IMG/VR virus record: IMGVR_UViG_3300019477_000097
Strand: one strand, 5' to 3'
DNA length: 59,863 nt
Source: a virus
Shown: one piece after another, positions 38,182 through 42,665 of the stretch
Layout: every line of letters starts with the position of its first letter
Numbering within the stretch: position 1 is the stretch's first letter
Notes under the pieces: generated by a model
What the model was told of the DNA's origin: nothing
The model's input: only the letters and a program-made list of their open reading frames with translations
Databases searched by the model: none
Made by a program: the position numbers and the translations under genes

Positions 38182-38356
38182 GGACGTGGCCTTTTAAGAT
38201 ATTTGTCAAGGTAGAAGCCCATTTTTTTGCAGACTTATAATCTCCAAATTTTTTAGAAAATAATACTACTTCATCTCCGTAAATATTGGCGATGTATTCA
38301 CCGTAACCTGCTTTAAAAACTTCATAAGAAACTTTAACTCTTGCGTCAAATAACAT
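38174..38356 (-). CDS. Hypothetical protein (60 aa)
   Basis: ORF-track ORF, coupled between dpdA and the clamp-like gene. Confidence 0.5.
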   Translation of the reverse strand: MLFDARVKVSYEVFKAGYGEYIANIYGDEVVLFSKKFGDYKSAKKWASTLTNILKGHVHA

Positions 38357-39288
38357 TAAAATAACTCCTGATTGTGGGCTTGGAAATGGTTGTAATCGTT
38401 TGCAGCATTCATCATTGCATTAATTACACCATACGCCCAAAGATTGTAAGCCATGCGACTTTGATAAACTGTCGACAATCTTTCGTAAGTAAATCCTGCA
38501 CGTTCCAAAGCCTCTAAAACTTTGTCCTGTTCAGCAGGCGTTAATGTAGACAAGTGCATACCAGCGTCATGTCGTTGTGGGGATTTATCGGATATCGCTA
38601 TTGGTCCGAATTCCGGCGTTACAATAGAACCGAACGAACCTGTTTGAATCCAAGAAGACGAGTCACAACTCCACCACGGATATCGTTCCATGATTGGAAT
38701 AGAGGTAATACCGAAGCCATGCACTTTTATGCGAGGGCGTCCTGAACCATCAACAAGGAACTTGTCCCAAACCCTGTCTAACCACAACATAAGCTGTTTA
38801 GTGGAACTTCCTACCATGCCACCTAAGCTGATGTAGTCGTAGTTTTGGATATACCATTCCAAATAACGTTCGTCCTCGCCTGCGTGGAAGCACGGCATAG
38901 GTTTCACACCCAACGCTTCCATAGACAACTGGTTACGATACGTCTCTAAAGGGTCACCGATACCGTCCAATACGGCAGCCATTAAAACGCCGTCCTCAAC
39001 ACGAAGAATGTCGATATTGCGTTTGATATAGTCCACATACGTTGGTAAATGGATTTTTGCGCCCAATGTGTACGCGGAGAACGCGCCACTGTCAAGAAAT
39101 ATCTTTGCGCCGTCCTCGCGCATACCTTTCACATATTTGTCTTTCCAAACATAGTGGTAGGATTCAAGAATGTTTGGTAAATTGGATACGATATTACGTT
39201 CATGTTCGTTTAGCACGTCCCAACGAATAGGGCTGTGCATACCTGGAACATATTCGTTCGTATATACGGCAGCCGTGTATAACTTCAT
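38356..39288 (-). CDS. dpdA: DpdA-type DNA guanine transglycosylase (TGT superfamily)
   Basis: TGT-like motifs FLDSGAFS (catalytic Asp region), ISLGGMVGSS and WWSCDSSSW. It is adjacent to the folE/queD/queE/queC set. Confidence 0.8.
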   Translation of the reverse strand: MKLYTAAVYTNEYVPGMHSPIRWDVLNEHERNIVSNLPNILESYHYVWKDKYVKGMREDGAKIFLDSGAFSAYTLGAKIHLPTYVDYIKRNIDILRVEDGVLMAAVLDGIGDPLETYRNQLSMEALGVKPMPCFHAGEDERYLEWYIQNYDYISLGGMVGSSTKQLMLWLDRVWDKFLVDGSGRPRIKVHGFGITSIPIMERYPWWSCDSSSWIQTGSFGSIVTPEFGPIAISDKSPQRHDAGMHLSTLTPAEQDKVLEALERAGFTYERLSTVYQSRMAYNLWAYGVINAMMNAANDYNHFQAHNQELF

Positions 39289-39304
39289 TTGACATCCTCA
39301 TATA

Positions 39305-39335
39305 ATTAACGGCATAAAGGTATTATGCCGTTAAT
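39305..39335 (-). promoter_or_regulatory. Perfect 12-bp stem-loop between folE and dpdA (attenuator/processing candidate)
   Basis: attaacggcata / tatgccgttaat with a 7-nt loop. There is no U tract before the dpdA RBS. Confidence 0.45.
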
Positions 39336-39353
39336 CCGTTTAAATCGCAAGTA

Positions 39354-39944
39354 TCAGTTTGCCAAGTTTAAAAACTCGGCGCGTGTTTGGGGTTCATCAC
39401 GAATTGCACCACGCAACGCCGAAGTAATTGTTTCAGCACCTTGCGTCTCAATACCGCGACTTTCCATGCACATATGACGGCATTTAATAAGCACACCCAC
39501 GCCCAACGGCTGCAGATGCTCTTCAATAGCGTCAGCGATTTGCTGTGTCAAGCGTTCCTGCACTTGCAAACGGCGGGCGAAGATATTAGCTACACGTTTG
39601 AGCTTTGACAAACCGACAACTTTACCGTTTGGAATGTAGGCAATGGTTACAGTACCAAAGAACGGCGCAAGGTGATGCTCGCAATGGCTGTAAATCGGCA
39701 TATCCTTAACGATAACCATTTGGTCGTATTTTTCCGCCCCGTCCTCAAACACTTTAAGAACGTCCGCAGGGTTTTGGTTGTAACCTTGCGTCCAAAATTC
39801 CCATGCTTTTAAGGCGCGGGCAGGCGTTTCAATCAGACCACCACGTTCAGGGTTCTCGCCAATAACTCTTAAAAGGTCTCGAAAAACCTTTTCCTCTTTA
39901 GGACGAAAATCGCCTTTAGAGGATGTTTTGCAGTTTTCACACAT
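39354..39944 (-). CDS. folE: GTP cyclohydrolase I
   Basis: Signature SHCEHHLAPF and an overall FolE-like pattern. 196 aa. Confidence 0.9.
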   Translation of the reverse strand: MCENCKTSSKGDFRPKEEKVFRDLLRVIGENPERGGLIETPARALKAWEFWTQGYNQNPADVLKVFEDGAEKYDQMVIVKDMPIYSHCEHHLAPFFGTVTIAYIPNGKVVGLSKLKRVANIFARRLQVQERLTQQIADAIEEHLQPLGVGVLIKCRHMCMESRGIETQGAETITSALRGAIRDEPQTRAEFLNLAN

Positions 39945-40463: not shown

Positions 40464-40744
40464 TATTCGCTTCTTTCTGCCGTTGCAACGTGACGACCTG
40501 TTAAAAGTTTAACTTCACATTTAATGGCGTTAGGATATGTTTCCAACACGTCCTTAGCAATGTCCTCCATGAACATACGCTTCATAGAATAATTCTTGCG
40601 TAACTCTTTACGCACTTTGAACAATTCTTCAAAACCGTCAAAAGTTACATAAATGTAAATAACGTCCGGCAAAACCGCCAAAGGACAACGAGTGATAATC
40701 GGCAACCATGTAGACACGCGAGTTGTCATTTTAGGATTAGACAT
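40463..40744 (-). CDS. Small QueF-like tunnelling-fold protein (93 aa; alternative start 40729)
   Basis: CPLAVLPD aligns with the QueF catalytic CPxTGQPD. The following I.IYV..... and F.ED also align with B. subtilis QueF by eye. The NADPH motif E[SL]K[SA]hK[LY][YFW] is not evident, and FHED reads FMED. Confidence 0.55.
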   Translation of the reverse strand: MSNPKMTTRVSTWLPIITRCPLAVLPDVIYIYVTFDGFEELFKVRKELRKNYSMKRMFMEDIAKDVLETYPNAIKCEVKLLTGRHVATAERSE

Positions 40745-41133
40745 AATAACACGCTCCATAAAACGGCTAAGAATAAGCCAAGATAAAAAGATGAGTTGAA
40801 GAATTCCCATTCAGGCATAAAACTAAACCTTTTGGGGAGCGGGTATAGTAACACACTTCCCCACTCTTTGCCATGCGTAAATAAATCCAAATAGAGATGG
40901 CTCAAATACGCTAAAAATAACCCTGCATTGCCGTAAAGGGCATAGCCTGCTATACCCACAATAACAGCCGCTGCTAGGCTGTGTGTTGCATTGTAGGCGG
41001 GCGGCGGGCTTGGGTAACGCTTTACCCGCATAATAGGCAAATCGGCGGCAATGCCCGCTATTGCGCCTGCAATGGGGTGTCCAAAAAAGCTCCCCGTGTA
41101 TGCACCTACAACGGCGTGAGTGGTGATGTCCAT
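40726..41133 (-). CDS. Small His-rich integral membrane protein (YdjM/DUF457-like metal-dependent hydrolase pattern)
   Basis: MDITTHA..., THS and SHLYLDLFTH motifs, with about 4 hydrophobic segments. It lies inside the deazaguanine cluster. Confidence 0.55.
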   Translation of the reverse strand: MDITTHAVVGAYTGSFFGHPIAGAIAGIAADLPIMRVKRYPSPPPAYNATHSLAAAVIVGIAGYALYGNAGLFLAYLSHLYLDLFTHGKEWGSVLLYPLPKRFSFMPEWEFFNSSFYLGLFLAVLWSVLLCLILK

Positions 41134-41904
41134 TTAAATACCGATAATCGCTTGAGTTTCGTCAAACAGTTCTTCGCGGTAGTTTTTAGTTGTCGGCATC
41201 GGCATTACGCCCTCGACAACAGCGCGAACAACCAACGGGTCAGGCAATCCTGCTTCTAAAAACCCTTGCGCCCGCAGGATATTACTGTGGTTATTATCGG
41301 TTGGCGGGTATTTGCCGTCATAAGACGTGTGAGAATATGCCAACGCTTTCCAGCAATCTGGCATCTCATACGCCATTTCGACTGTTTCGCATTTAGTGTT
41401 GTAAAGTAAAGGTGCAACAACTTGGAAATTATCTACACCCAAAGATGTGCTGGCGGCATGGTTAAATGCTTCCAGGAACTGGGCTGTACAATCTGGATAG
41501 TTTGCATTGTCCGTTGCACAAATACCTGTAACCAATGTATCACAACCGAGATAGATTGCGCGGTTCATTGCGATTGTGAAGAACAGCATATTACGCATCG
41601 GAACAAAAGTAGATTCGACTTTCTTACCGACAGTTTTTTCCATTTGTTCAAACGATTCGTATTTTTCCAATTTTGTATCGGAAGTCAACGGGCTTGTGGA
41701 TTTCAGGCAGTTCGGAATTTCAACAAATTCGTGGGATTCAACACCTGCAATCTCTGCAACCTTTTCCGCAGCGTCGAGTTCGATAACGTGGCGTTGTCCG
41801 TAGTAAAACGTCACGGCGTGTACTTCGTCAAAGTTCTTTTTCGCCCAGAAAAGGCAAGTGGTGGAATCTTGTCCACCGGACAGAATCACTAATGCTTTAC
41901 TCAT
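41134..41904 (-). CDS. queC: 7-cyano-7-deazaguanine synthase-like (QueC family), lacking the usual C-terminal Zn-binding cysteines
   Basis: PP-loop motif ILSGGQDSTTC. E. coli TCYNG...GCGHCAACNLRA aligns here with TSYDG...DNNHSNILRA. Confidence 0.85.
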   Translation of the reverse strand: MSKALVILSGGQDSTTCLFWAKKNFDEVHAVTFYYGQRHVIELDAAEKVAEIAGVESHEFVEIPNCLKSTSPLTSDTKLEKYESFEQMEKTVGKKVESTFVPMRNMLFFTIAMNRAIYLGCDTLVTGICATDNANYPDCTAQFLEAFNHAASTSLGVDNFQVVAPLLYNTKCETVEMAYEMPDCWKALAYSHTSYDGKYPPTDNNHSNILRAQGFLEAGLPDPLVVRAVVEGVMPMPTTKNYREELFDETQAIIGI

Positions 41905-41909
41905 TGTGG

Positions 41910-42665
41910 TTACTCCATGTTGATAATCTTGTGAGTTTGGATTTGAAGCGTATAACCGCCTTTAAGACAGCTATTAATAGCTTCTTGTAAGTTCAATTTG
42001 TTCTTGACTTCGTCTTGTTCGTCCATTGGTTGAACGTAAACTGTTTGTACAAAGTCATGGGACGGACGTGCAACTCTTACACCAACAGGATGGTCTAAGC
42101 TGTGGATAGGTAAGTAGTCCATTGGATCCACGTCATTGTGCTTAATCACATACTTAAGGGCGCAGGCGTATTTACGAATCAGAGGATTGATTCCTCCAGA
42201 TTTAGGGGAACAAACAATATAAACGGCGGATATACCTTGAACGTTCACGTTTGTTACAAACGAAGAATAGTGATAATTCTCTTCCACACCATTGTCGAAT
42301 GGAACAGGTGGCAGTGTGCCGTTTGTTTCAATCTGGACTTTCATACCCATTTTAACAAGCAGTTCCAAAAGATAACGAATGTTGTATTGACGGAATGGTT
42401 CGCCGCCTGTGATAACCACAAGGTTATCCTTAGTTGTCATTTCAAGAATTTTAGAAACAATTTCTTGTGCGGACATAAAGTGGCGTTGGGACGTGTAGTC
42501 TGTGTCGCAGCCTGGACACTGTAAGTTACAACCTGCTAAACGGACAAATACGGCAGGACGGCCTGTAAACGGACCTTCACCTTGAATTGTGTAGAAGATA
42601 GAATGAACTGCAATAGCTCGATGGTCTGGTTGGAAAAACTTCTCAATAGGTTGAATGTTTATCAT
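41910..42665 (-). CDS. queE: 7-carboxy-7-deazaguanine synthase (radical SAM)
   Basis: CxxxCxxC cluster AGCNLQCPGCDT. 251 aa. Confidence 0.9.
   Translation of the reverse strand: MINIQPIEKFFQPDHRAIAVHSIFYTIQGEGPFTGRPAVFVRLAGCNLQCPGCDTDYTSQRHFMSAQEIVSKILEMTTKDNLVVITGGEPFRQYNIRYLLELLVKMGMKVQIETNGTLPPVPFDNGVEENYHYSSFVTNVNVQGISAVYIVCSPKSGGINPLIRKYACALKYVIKHNDVDPMDYLPIHSLDHPVGVRVARPSHDFVQTVYVQPMDEQDEVKNKLNLQEAINSCLKGGYTLQIQTHKIINME

Follow-up and report, generated by a model that had tools for sequence, protein, structure and literature searches.

A phage-restricted mini T-fold protein and its YdjM-like membrane neighbor form a conserved module in a 7-deazaguanine DNA-modification cluster

We describe a seven-gene cluster from a 59,863-nucleotide stretch of viral DNA (IMG/VR virus record IMGVR_UViG_3300019477_000097; the whole stretch is hereafter called the window). 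The seven genes lie in a row on the minus strand (window positions 38356-42665) and almost certainly constitute a functional 7-deazaguanine DNA-modification cluster, by which part of the phage's own guanines would be replaced. The core is an ordinary Queuovirinae-type cluster for making preQ0 (7-cyano-7-deazaguanine) and inserting it into DNA through DpdA; it is of a known kind, and its exact gene order has already been published for Sphingomonas phage vB_StuS_MMDA13. Within this core are two extra genes, encoding a YdjM/DUF457-like membrane protein and a mini tunnelling-fold (T-fold) protein, which constitute a real, conserved two-gene module. We consider it likely that this pair acts on the nitrile of preQ0; 2'-deoxyarchaeosine (dG+) is the likeliest product, with about an even chance. 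The gene order and coordinates of the initial annotation were confirmed from the translations of the open reading frames (ORFs), and the features are as follows:

41910..42665, minus strand: QueE-like radical-SAM (S-adenosylmethionine) 7-carboxy-7-deazaguanine synthase, 251 aa (phrog_2076, PF04055, CxxxCxxC)
41134..41904, minus strand: stand-alone QueC of a cysteine-less subtype, lacking a glutamine amidotransferase (Gat) domain, 256 aa (PF06508, TIGR00364)
40726..41133, minus strand: YdjM/DUF457-like membrane metalloprotein (predicted), 135 aa (PF04307)
40463..40744, minus strand: mini QueF-Like T-fold protein, 93 aa, candidate nitrile-modifying enzyme (fold and family profile)
39954..40463, minus strand: QueD, 6-carboxytetrahydropterin synthase, 169 aa (PF01242, phrog_2389, CxxxHGHxY)
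39354..39944, minus strand: FolE, GTP cyclohydrolase I, 196 aa (PF01227, TIGR00063, CEHHLAPF)
39304..39336, minus strand: perfect 14-bp hairpin in the FolE-DpdA spacer (RNA folding compared with shuffles)
38356..39288, minus strand: phage DpdA, 7-deazaguanine DNA transglycosylase, 310 aa (phrog_887, identity to CAjan and MiCath DpdA)

The two extra genes and the site that they occupy

Loci for comparison comprised 24 recovered by a T-fold profile search of viral contigs, six further contigs recovered with a membrane-protein profile, MMDA13, and three Logan contigs. The membrane-protein and mini T-fold genes were adjacent, and in the same order, in about 35 phage loci with enough sequence, the one exception being locus L024; the adjacency was also kept in clusters with another gene order and in a jumbo-phage contig. 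One metagenome contig encodes both as a single fusion protein of 211 aa, located between FolE and DpdA, in which the T-fold domain takes the place of the last transmembrane helix. Because the genes are adjacent in some 35 loci, overlap in the window (by 19 nt), and have been fused once, we regard them as a single module. They had been described at the outset as two extra, atypical members of the cluster; both are indeed present, but they are not peculiar to this genome, belonging instead to a conserved module that is also found in the published MMDA13.

Two loci have unusual surroundings. At L024 (451-756), the order is DpdA, mini T-fold, QueC, QueD, QueE, FolE, and the QueC is of the canonical, Cys-containing type. 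A 289,811-bp IMG/VR contig (L054, 5001-6452) carries a YdjM-like/mini T-fold/QueC triad whose neighbors encode a CYTH-domain protein and a DNA ligase of the ATP-dependent type, in a setting without the Queuovirinae backbone. Because this jumbo-phage-sized contig carries the triad outside that backbone, we take the module to be mobile between very different phages.

The window and its relatives share a backbone (helicase .. QueE-QueC-[X]-QueD-FolE-DpdA-small ORF-clamp-PolB) in which the content of one position, X, varies. In MMDA13 (MN820898, gp36-gp30), the same seven genes occur in the same order with both extras at X, at identities to the window of 41-62% (mini T-fold, 41%; membrane protein, gp34, 48%; QueC, 62%). 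The published annotation names gp33 a QueF-like archaeosine synthase (HHpred, 91%), leaves gp34 hypothetical, and notes that QueC lacks a Gat domain; dG+ was predicted for this phage from the genes, not from chemistry (PMC7472734, Viruses 2020). MMDA13 and several metagenomic relatives differ from the window in having a FolE of about 295-298 aa (L002 6791-7678; L003 6737-7633), with an N-terminal extension of about 100 aa, whereas the window FolE has 196 aa.

In Pseudomonas phage MiCath, X is represented by a Gat domain fused to QueC (467 aa). A Gat-QueC is found in Escherichia phage 9g as well, and this phage carries dG+ (Hutinet et al. 2023). Relative to the window, the Gat-QueC phages (9g and the Pseudomonas phages NP1, PaMx25, and MiCath) lack the YdjM-like and mini T-fold genes and have DpdA proteins that are 67-71% identical and PolB proteins that are about 60% identical; synteny of the replication module was shown for MiCath. 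The window QueC had no glutamine amidotransferase match in Pfam or NCBIfam, and aligned just to the C-terminal half of the MiCath Gat-QueC. None of the loci examined had Gat-QueC together with the module. The two are never found together, a pattern suggesting that module and Gat domain substitute for each other, place for place, at X. Two phages whose DNA carries 2'-deoxy-preQ0 (dPreQ0) share the core genes and their order and lack the YdjM-like/T-fold pair: (i) CAjan (Seuratvirus), with a DpdA 66% identical to that of the window, has YhhQ and two unrelated ORFs at X, and (ii) Iggy (Iggyvirus), with a Cys-less QueC bearing a C-terminal extension, has nothing comparable there. The CAjan ORFs between queC and queD (YhhQ, and those of 189 aa and 107 aa) were considered as relatives of the two extras and showed no similarity to them.

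The mini T-fold protein and its membrane partner

The longest ORF for the mini T-fold protein begins at 40810; its homologues have 93-95 aa, which puts the true start at MSNPK, at 40744. The protein had no match in Pfam, PHROG, or NCBIfam, and PDB searches with the single sequence or a 7-sequence profile returned just sub-threshold matches to dihydroneopterin aldolase. A link to the archaeal QueF-Like enzyme (QueF-L) emerged solely with a 65-member family profile and with the predicted structure. The AlphaFold2 model (predicted local distance difference test score, pLDDT, 81; both extras were modeled as monomers) has the beta-beta-alpha-alpha-beta-beta topology of a tunnelling fold. When this model was compared with the PDB using Foldseek, the best 13 matches were all QueF-Like chains of Pyrobaculum calidifontis (5K0P/5JYX), at TM-scores of 0.64-0.76 (12 of the 13 at 0.71-0.76), while QueF of B. 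subtilis ranked 17th (E=1.4e-2, TM 0.61). Among viral models, the best match (TM 0.86) was a gut-virome protein auto-named “Archeaosine synthase”, and QueF of HVTV-1 was a weak match (E=0.32). The 65-member family profile matched 5jyx_A at E=5.7e-4 and matched none of the QueF structures at E<=10. The hidden Markov model of the family gave 22.9 bits to a QueF-L fragment, compared with 8-9 bits to phage QueF, and PF14489 (QueF) did not match the window protein and matched 3/65 of its relatives, at E values of at least 0.025.

The residues of the predicted active site point in the same direction. In the profile alignment, C20 and D27 fall on the catalytic Cys21 and Asp28 of QueF-L, and E60 on its substrate-anchoring Glu; all three positions are conserved across the family (Cys in 64/65, Asp or Glu in 64/65, and Glu in 61/65). 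The archaeal enzyme, a 109-aa chain compared with 93 aa here, has the same Cys-x6-Asp spacing at near-identical residue numbers, and both proteins keep the anchoring Glu and lack the NADPH motif. This motif, E(S/L)K(S/A)hK(L/Y)(Y/F/W), served to show that phage QueFs are reductases (Hutinet et al. 2023); it was present in 0/93 family members, whereas two genuine phage QueF controls have ESKSWKLY. The phage QueF reductases (those of Dp-1, HVTV-1, phiSM, and VH7D, and also of Pan1 and R26L), whose product is 2'-deoxy-preQ1 (dPreQ1), belong to the same T-fold superfamily and share the Cys, Asp, and Glu columns, but they differ from the mini T-fold protein in length (about 157 aa), in having ESKSWKLY and FHE, and in their extra N- and C-terminal segments. 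Unimodular QueF has approximately 60 residues at its N-terminus, and a TPRGGI segment at its C-terminus, that the mini protein lacks. The mini protein is unlike QueF-Like, too, in having Met for the His of LHE, in its identity of about 20%, in its obligate membrane-protein neighbor, where no partner of QueF-L is known, and in its presumed substrate, DNA or the free base. The QueF-like nature proposed in the initial annotation was upheld in a narrower form: the predicted fold and the aligned residues support a resemblance to archaeal QueF-L rather than to QueF, the NADPH motif of the latter being missing. DpdC was also considered as an analogue and was rejected, as it is a DUF328 protein that is unrelated to the T-fold.

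The mini T-fold family is rare and confined to phages. An exhaustive profile search of 1.84 billion proteins recovered 79 representative clusters, and a scan of 185,579 species genomes gave two real family matches, both on phage-sized contigs inside bins of metagenome-assembled genomes.

The membrane protein matched PF04307 (YdjM) at E=4.8e-8, with 33.1 bits against a gathering cut-off of 29, and is by this homology a member of a predicted family of membrane-bound metal-dependent hydrolases. Among its relatives, 37/39 matched PF04307 and 11/39 weakly matched Zn-dependent phospholipase C; the relative on the contig of about 290 kb reached E=8e-6 on the latter model. Residues H6, D31, H51, H79, D83, and H87 are invariant in the relatives, and D2 and E110 are invariant or nearly so. 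It had been called a His-rich membrane protein; the membrane assignment stood and four His are invariant in the family, but there are just 5 His in 135 residues. Its AlphaFold2 model (pLDDT 95) has six helices, and a search of the PDB with this model gave no match with E<1. The conserved polar residues and the basic loops lie on the same side of the model, which by the positive-inside rule would be the cytoplasmic face. A relationship between DUF457 and the Cap1 pore was considered and rejected; the Cap1 paper concerns DUF4579.

From preQ0 to the final base

The FolE-QueD-QueE-QueC route to preQ0 that had been proposed for this cluster was borne out by searches of Pfam, PHROG, and NCBIfam profiles. 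All four enzymes are present with their signature motifs, and every motif originally quoted was found in the translations: CNLQCPGC in QueE, SGGQDSTTC in QueC, CRHLHGHNY in QueD, CEHHLAPF in FolE, and DSGAFS and GGMVG in DpdA. FolE (PF01227, E=5.4e-71; TIGR00063, 216.6 bits against a cut-off of 181.6) and QueC (PF06508, E=9e-50; TIGR00364, 167.8 bits against 150.3) passed the NCBIfam equivalog cut-offs. QueD (PF01242, E=3.2e-26; phrog_2389, E=1.6e-51; 51% identity with CAjan QueD) and QueE (phrog_2076, E=3.2e-55; PF04055, E=9.5e-12; 47% identity with CAjan QueE) fell below the NCBIfam cut-offs, QueE at about 86 bits on the QueE models, but lay above those of Pfam and had strong PHROG matches.

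The QueC is unusual at its C-terminal zinc site (C..CxxCxxC), where all four Zn-ligand Cys are replaced: the sequence is HTSYDGKYPPTDNNHSN here, compared with HTCYNG..CGECPAC in CAjan. The initial annotation counted the atypical QueC among the features that leave room for another product, and for QueC this did not hold. The protein is 57% identical to QueC of Pseudomonas phage Iggy, odd Cys-less C-terminus included, and Iggy DNA carries strictly dPreQ0 (PMC10484667). Because the same subtype serves such a phage, the Cys-less QueC is, by homology, compatible with normal preQ0 synthesis and is not itself a reason to expect a different base. This subtype (window 41134-41904; Iggy, L057 5001-6062) has gained a conserved tail, ...NHxNxLRAxGF..PDPLVxRA...LPxTxNY, and is widespread in phages, including Iggy, Acinetobacter HD01, Rhizobium RHEph, Pan1, and others. 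Compensation by the membrane protein for the missing zinc site was considered and rejected: at loci L020 and L021, a canonical Cys-containing QueC occurs with both extras, at L024 a canonical QueC occurs with the mini T-fold gene alone, and in Iggy the Cys-less QueC occurs without the extras. Because canonical QueC is found at these three module-related loci (L020, L021, and L024), the loss of Cys and the presence of the module are independent.

DpdA was assigned by its homology to phage enzymes. The 310-aa protein matched phrog_887 (“queuine tRNA-ribosyltransferase”) at E=1.2e-85, and is 65.8% identical to CAjan DpdA over its full length (E=5e-157), with the DSGAFS and GGMVG motifs common to both; it is 70.6% identical to the MiCath protein, about 67% identical to those of the NP1/PaMx25 group, and 66% identical to those of Seurat and CAjan. 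The exact protein recurs on metagenomic contigs of about 59.6 kb. No Pfam family, that of the tRNA-guanine transglycosylases (TGT) included, was matched at E<=0.01, the NCBIfam model of bacterial DpdA (NF041059) gave 15 bits against a cut-off of 200, and no PDB sequence was matched at E<=1. The expectation that profile searches would place this protein in the TGT/DpdA family was therefore realized only in part, with phrog_887 and the identity to CAjan in its favor and the Pfam TGT and NF041059 models missing it; because those general profiles miss it, the placement relies on the phage-specific homology (phrog_887, and 66-70% identity to phage DpdAs). In CAjan, dpdA was shown genetically to be essential for dPreQ0 in DNA (PMC6884629). 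Because the window protein is 65.8% identical, over its full length, to this genetically validated enzyme, we accept it as a phage DpdA of the DpdA1 type that would act on DNA, and the proposal of a DpdA-mediated exchange of guanine in DNA is supported.

The model that best explains these observations as a whole runs from preQ0 through DpdA and a T-fold thioimide to dG+, and our confidence in the complete sequence is evenly balanced. Its early steps are suggested by strong homology: FolE, QueD, QueE, and QueC would make free preQ0 from GTP, and DpdA, to judge from its 66% identity to the CAjan enzyme, would swap guanine in double-stranded DNA for preQ0. The later steps are proposed from fold, residues, and gene context. 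Cys20 of the mini T-fold protein would attack the preQ0 nitrile, yielding a covalent thioimide, with Asp27 serving as acid/base and Glu60 holding the base, and ammonia would then resolve the thioimide to a formamidine, giving dG+. By comparison with archaeal QueF-L, which acts on preQ0 in tRNA, the substrate would probably be preQ0 already in DNA, although the free base is also possible. The module would thus do the job of the Gat domain that is fused to QueC in the sister phages 9g, NP1, and MiCath. More speculatively, the YdjM-like protein, with its cluster of His, Asp, and Glu facing the cytoplasm, may hold a T-fold oligomer at the membrane as a scaffold, or may supply or channel the nucleophile as an ammonia-supplying partner. 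Archaeal QueF-L uses free NH4+ alone, which enters via a tunnel in the decamer, and its authors explicitly left open whether there is an ammonia-generating partner (PMC5485725).

Several observations weigh against this model. At about 20% identity and E=5.7e-4, the sequence relation to QueF-L is weak. QueF and QueF-L both have a His in their (F/L)HE motif, in place of which the window protein has Met59, and the family has M, L, I, or V in 62/65 members and never His; because this His is replaced, the active site is not identical to that of QueF-L. The locus L024 has a T-fold gene without the membrane partner, and a membrane location is odd for an enzyme that acts on DNA. Sites resembling those of Zn-phospholipase C or P1 nuclease are not known to generate ammonia. 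In the module-bearing phages, MMDA13 included, dG+ is a predicted base. Finally, such a label has misled before: the proteins of phages Dp-1 and HVTV-1 that HHpred identified as “QueF-L” were found to be reductases, with dPreQ1 as their product (PMC6884629). The initial annotation had cautioned that the final base is unreadable from the sequence, and that the QueF-like and membrane genes leave room for a product other than dPreQ0; that caution was well founded.

One alternative, which we consider rather unlikely but worth weighing, retains the thioimide chemistry and changes the derivative, with water (perhaps via the metal site of the partner) giving 2'-deoxy-7-amido-7-deazaguanine (dADG), or another amine giving an N-substituted amidine. 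By its PF04307 match, the partner is a member of a family of predicted metal-dependent hydrolases, there are weak matches to Zn-dependent phospholipase C, and the natural fusion to the T-fold domain puts the predicted metal site beside the T-fold. Further, the His of QueF-L is replaced in nearly all family members by Met and is kept in none, so that the second half-reaction may differ, and a switch between amidohydrolase and amidotransferase of the QueF-L type has been raised before (Hutinet 2019; PMC6884629). Conversely, the known routes to dADG use other proteins: bacteria have DpdC (DUF328), and for phages a variant of QueC has been proposed. That the module never occurs with Gat-QueC fits its equivalence with a maker of dG+, although the same pattern would arise with a different product too.

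It is unlikely that the two extras leave the base as plain dPreQ0, and instead have an accessory role such as salvage or transport of a precursor at the membrane or protection of the host pool. Between queC and queD, CAjan encodes YhhQ, a membrane protein with the annotation of a preQ0 transporter, yet this phage makes dPreQ0, and the DpdA and QueC of the window are of the types found in dPreQ0 phages. However, the YdjM-like protein is without similarity to YhhQ, and a strictly conserved triad of Cys-x6-Asp and Glu, set in a fold of the QueF type, speaks for covalent chemistry on the nitrile rather than for transport.

A bolder proposal is that the YdjM-like and T-fold proteins constitute a previously unrecognised, membrane-bound, two-component enzyme, in which the T-fold protein captures the nitrile of preQ0 as a thioimide, the partner with its predicted metal site delivers a nucleophile other than free ammonia (an amine freed from the head group of a membrane lipid, or activated water, for example), and the resulting base, for example an N-substituted archaeosine, would lie outside the eight that have been described. 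We regard this as distinctly unlikely.

That the mini protein is an NADPH-dependent preQ0 reductase, with dPreQ1 in the DNA, is improbable. In its favor, preQ1 or dPreQ1 was the outcome for all phage proteins of the QueF family that have been studied experimentally (PMC6884629, PMC10516641), and the superfamily is the same; however, the family has no copy of the NADPH motif that the phage QueF controls possess, the terminal segments of unimodular QueF are missing, and both fold and profile are closer to QueF-L. Finally, preQ0 genes are common to the tRNA pathway, but a role for the cluster in host tRNA queuosine metabolism rather than in phage DNA is barely credible, given that its transglycosylase belongs with the phage DpdAs, has 66% identity to one that acts on DNA, and has no Pfam TGT match, and that it sits in a replication module beside clamp and polymerase.

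Cluster layout, neighborhood, and phage affiliation

The initial annotation described the genes as tightly coupled with ATGA overlaps. Tight packing was confirmed, but no ATGA overlap was found within the cluster. Instead, the junctions between mini T-fold and QueD, and between DpdA and the next ORF, are one-base TAATG overlaps; QueC and the membrane protein abut with a zero-base gap; the two module genes have the 19-nt overlap mentioned above; and the remaining small gaps are of 5 and 9 nt. The sole sizeable gap is the 65-nt FolE-DpdA spacer. The hairpin within it has an RNA minimum free energy of -20.3 kcal/mol (calculated for a 71-nt spacer), with z=-4.6 relative to 200 shuffles. No T-run follows, so it is not a canonical terminator; it sits directly upstream of the dpdA ribosome-binding site, and may set apart or regulate dpdA expression. 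Promoter- and terminator-like sites in the region were no commoner than in shuffled sequence, and the 59.9-kb window had no detectable genes for tRNA or tmRNA.

As originally noted, the cluster adjoins genes for a sliding-clamp-like protein (phrog_947, E=2e-64) and for a DNA polymerase of the family-B type (phrog_1252, E=1.5e-206), both lying downstream. The longest polymerase ORF begins with TTG at 37279, which gives a 55-nt overlap with the clamp gene; a start at ATG 37228, which overlaps the clamp stop codon as ATGA, seems likelier, and provided that this is the start, the clamp/polymerase junction is the sole ATGA overlap. A 60-aa ORF (38174-38356, minus strand) is TAATG-coupled to dpdA and overlaps the clamp gene. 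MiCath, MMDA13, CAjan, and Iggy have an ORF of 60-75 aa at the matching place, with no detectable sequence similarity to it.

Upstream of the cluster are a conserved putative activator and a helicase. A 229-aa protein (42740-43429, minus strand) has a core matching phrog_18634 (E=4e-40), flanked on both sides by low-complexity arms rich in Lys, Ala, and Glu, and is homologous to a CAjan protein annotated as an FtrA-domain transcriptional activator. Homologues lie directly or almost directly upstream of queE in most relatives, and in the window the gene coincides with a strong AT-skew excursion at 42-44 kb.

A near-identity DNA search with the cluster gave no match among 50,697 phage records, and the closest PolB, from a Nipunavirus, is about 60% identical. 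Because there is no DNA-level match, and DpdA and PolB are 66-71% and about 60% identical, respectively, to those of known phages, the window is by homology a Queuovirinae-like siphovirus genome without a cultured close relative.

Phage 7-deazaguanine DNA modifications block restriction enzymes and Cas9, and the base that is made depends on the enzyme that follows preQ0. In the searchable literature, we found nothing on (i) the conserved, sometimes fused, pairing of a mini T-fold protein with a YdjM-like metalloprotein, (ii) a phage-restricted, minimal QueF-L-like family without the NADPH motif and the His, or (iii) the mutual exclusion of the module and Gat-QueC, and the YdjM-like membrane protein was not connected there with deazaguanines. 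A recent survey had found no phage sequences aligning with archaeal QueF-L (Hutinet et al. 2023). With the mini T-fold family, phages would have their first credible equivalent of the archaeosine synthase of archaea, and the obligate, predicted membrane metalloprotein beside it bears on the archaeal question of whether QueF-L has a nucleophile-supplying partner. The module is present in an isolated phage, MMDA13, and in the phages that carry it the conserved extra pair probably decides which final base is made.

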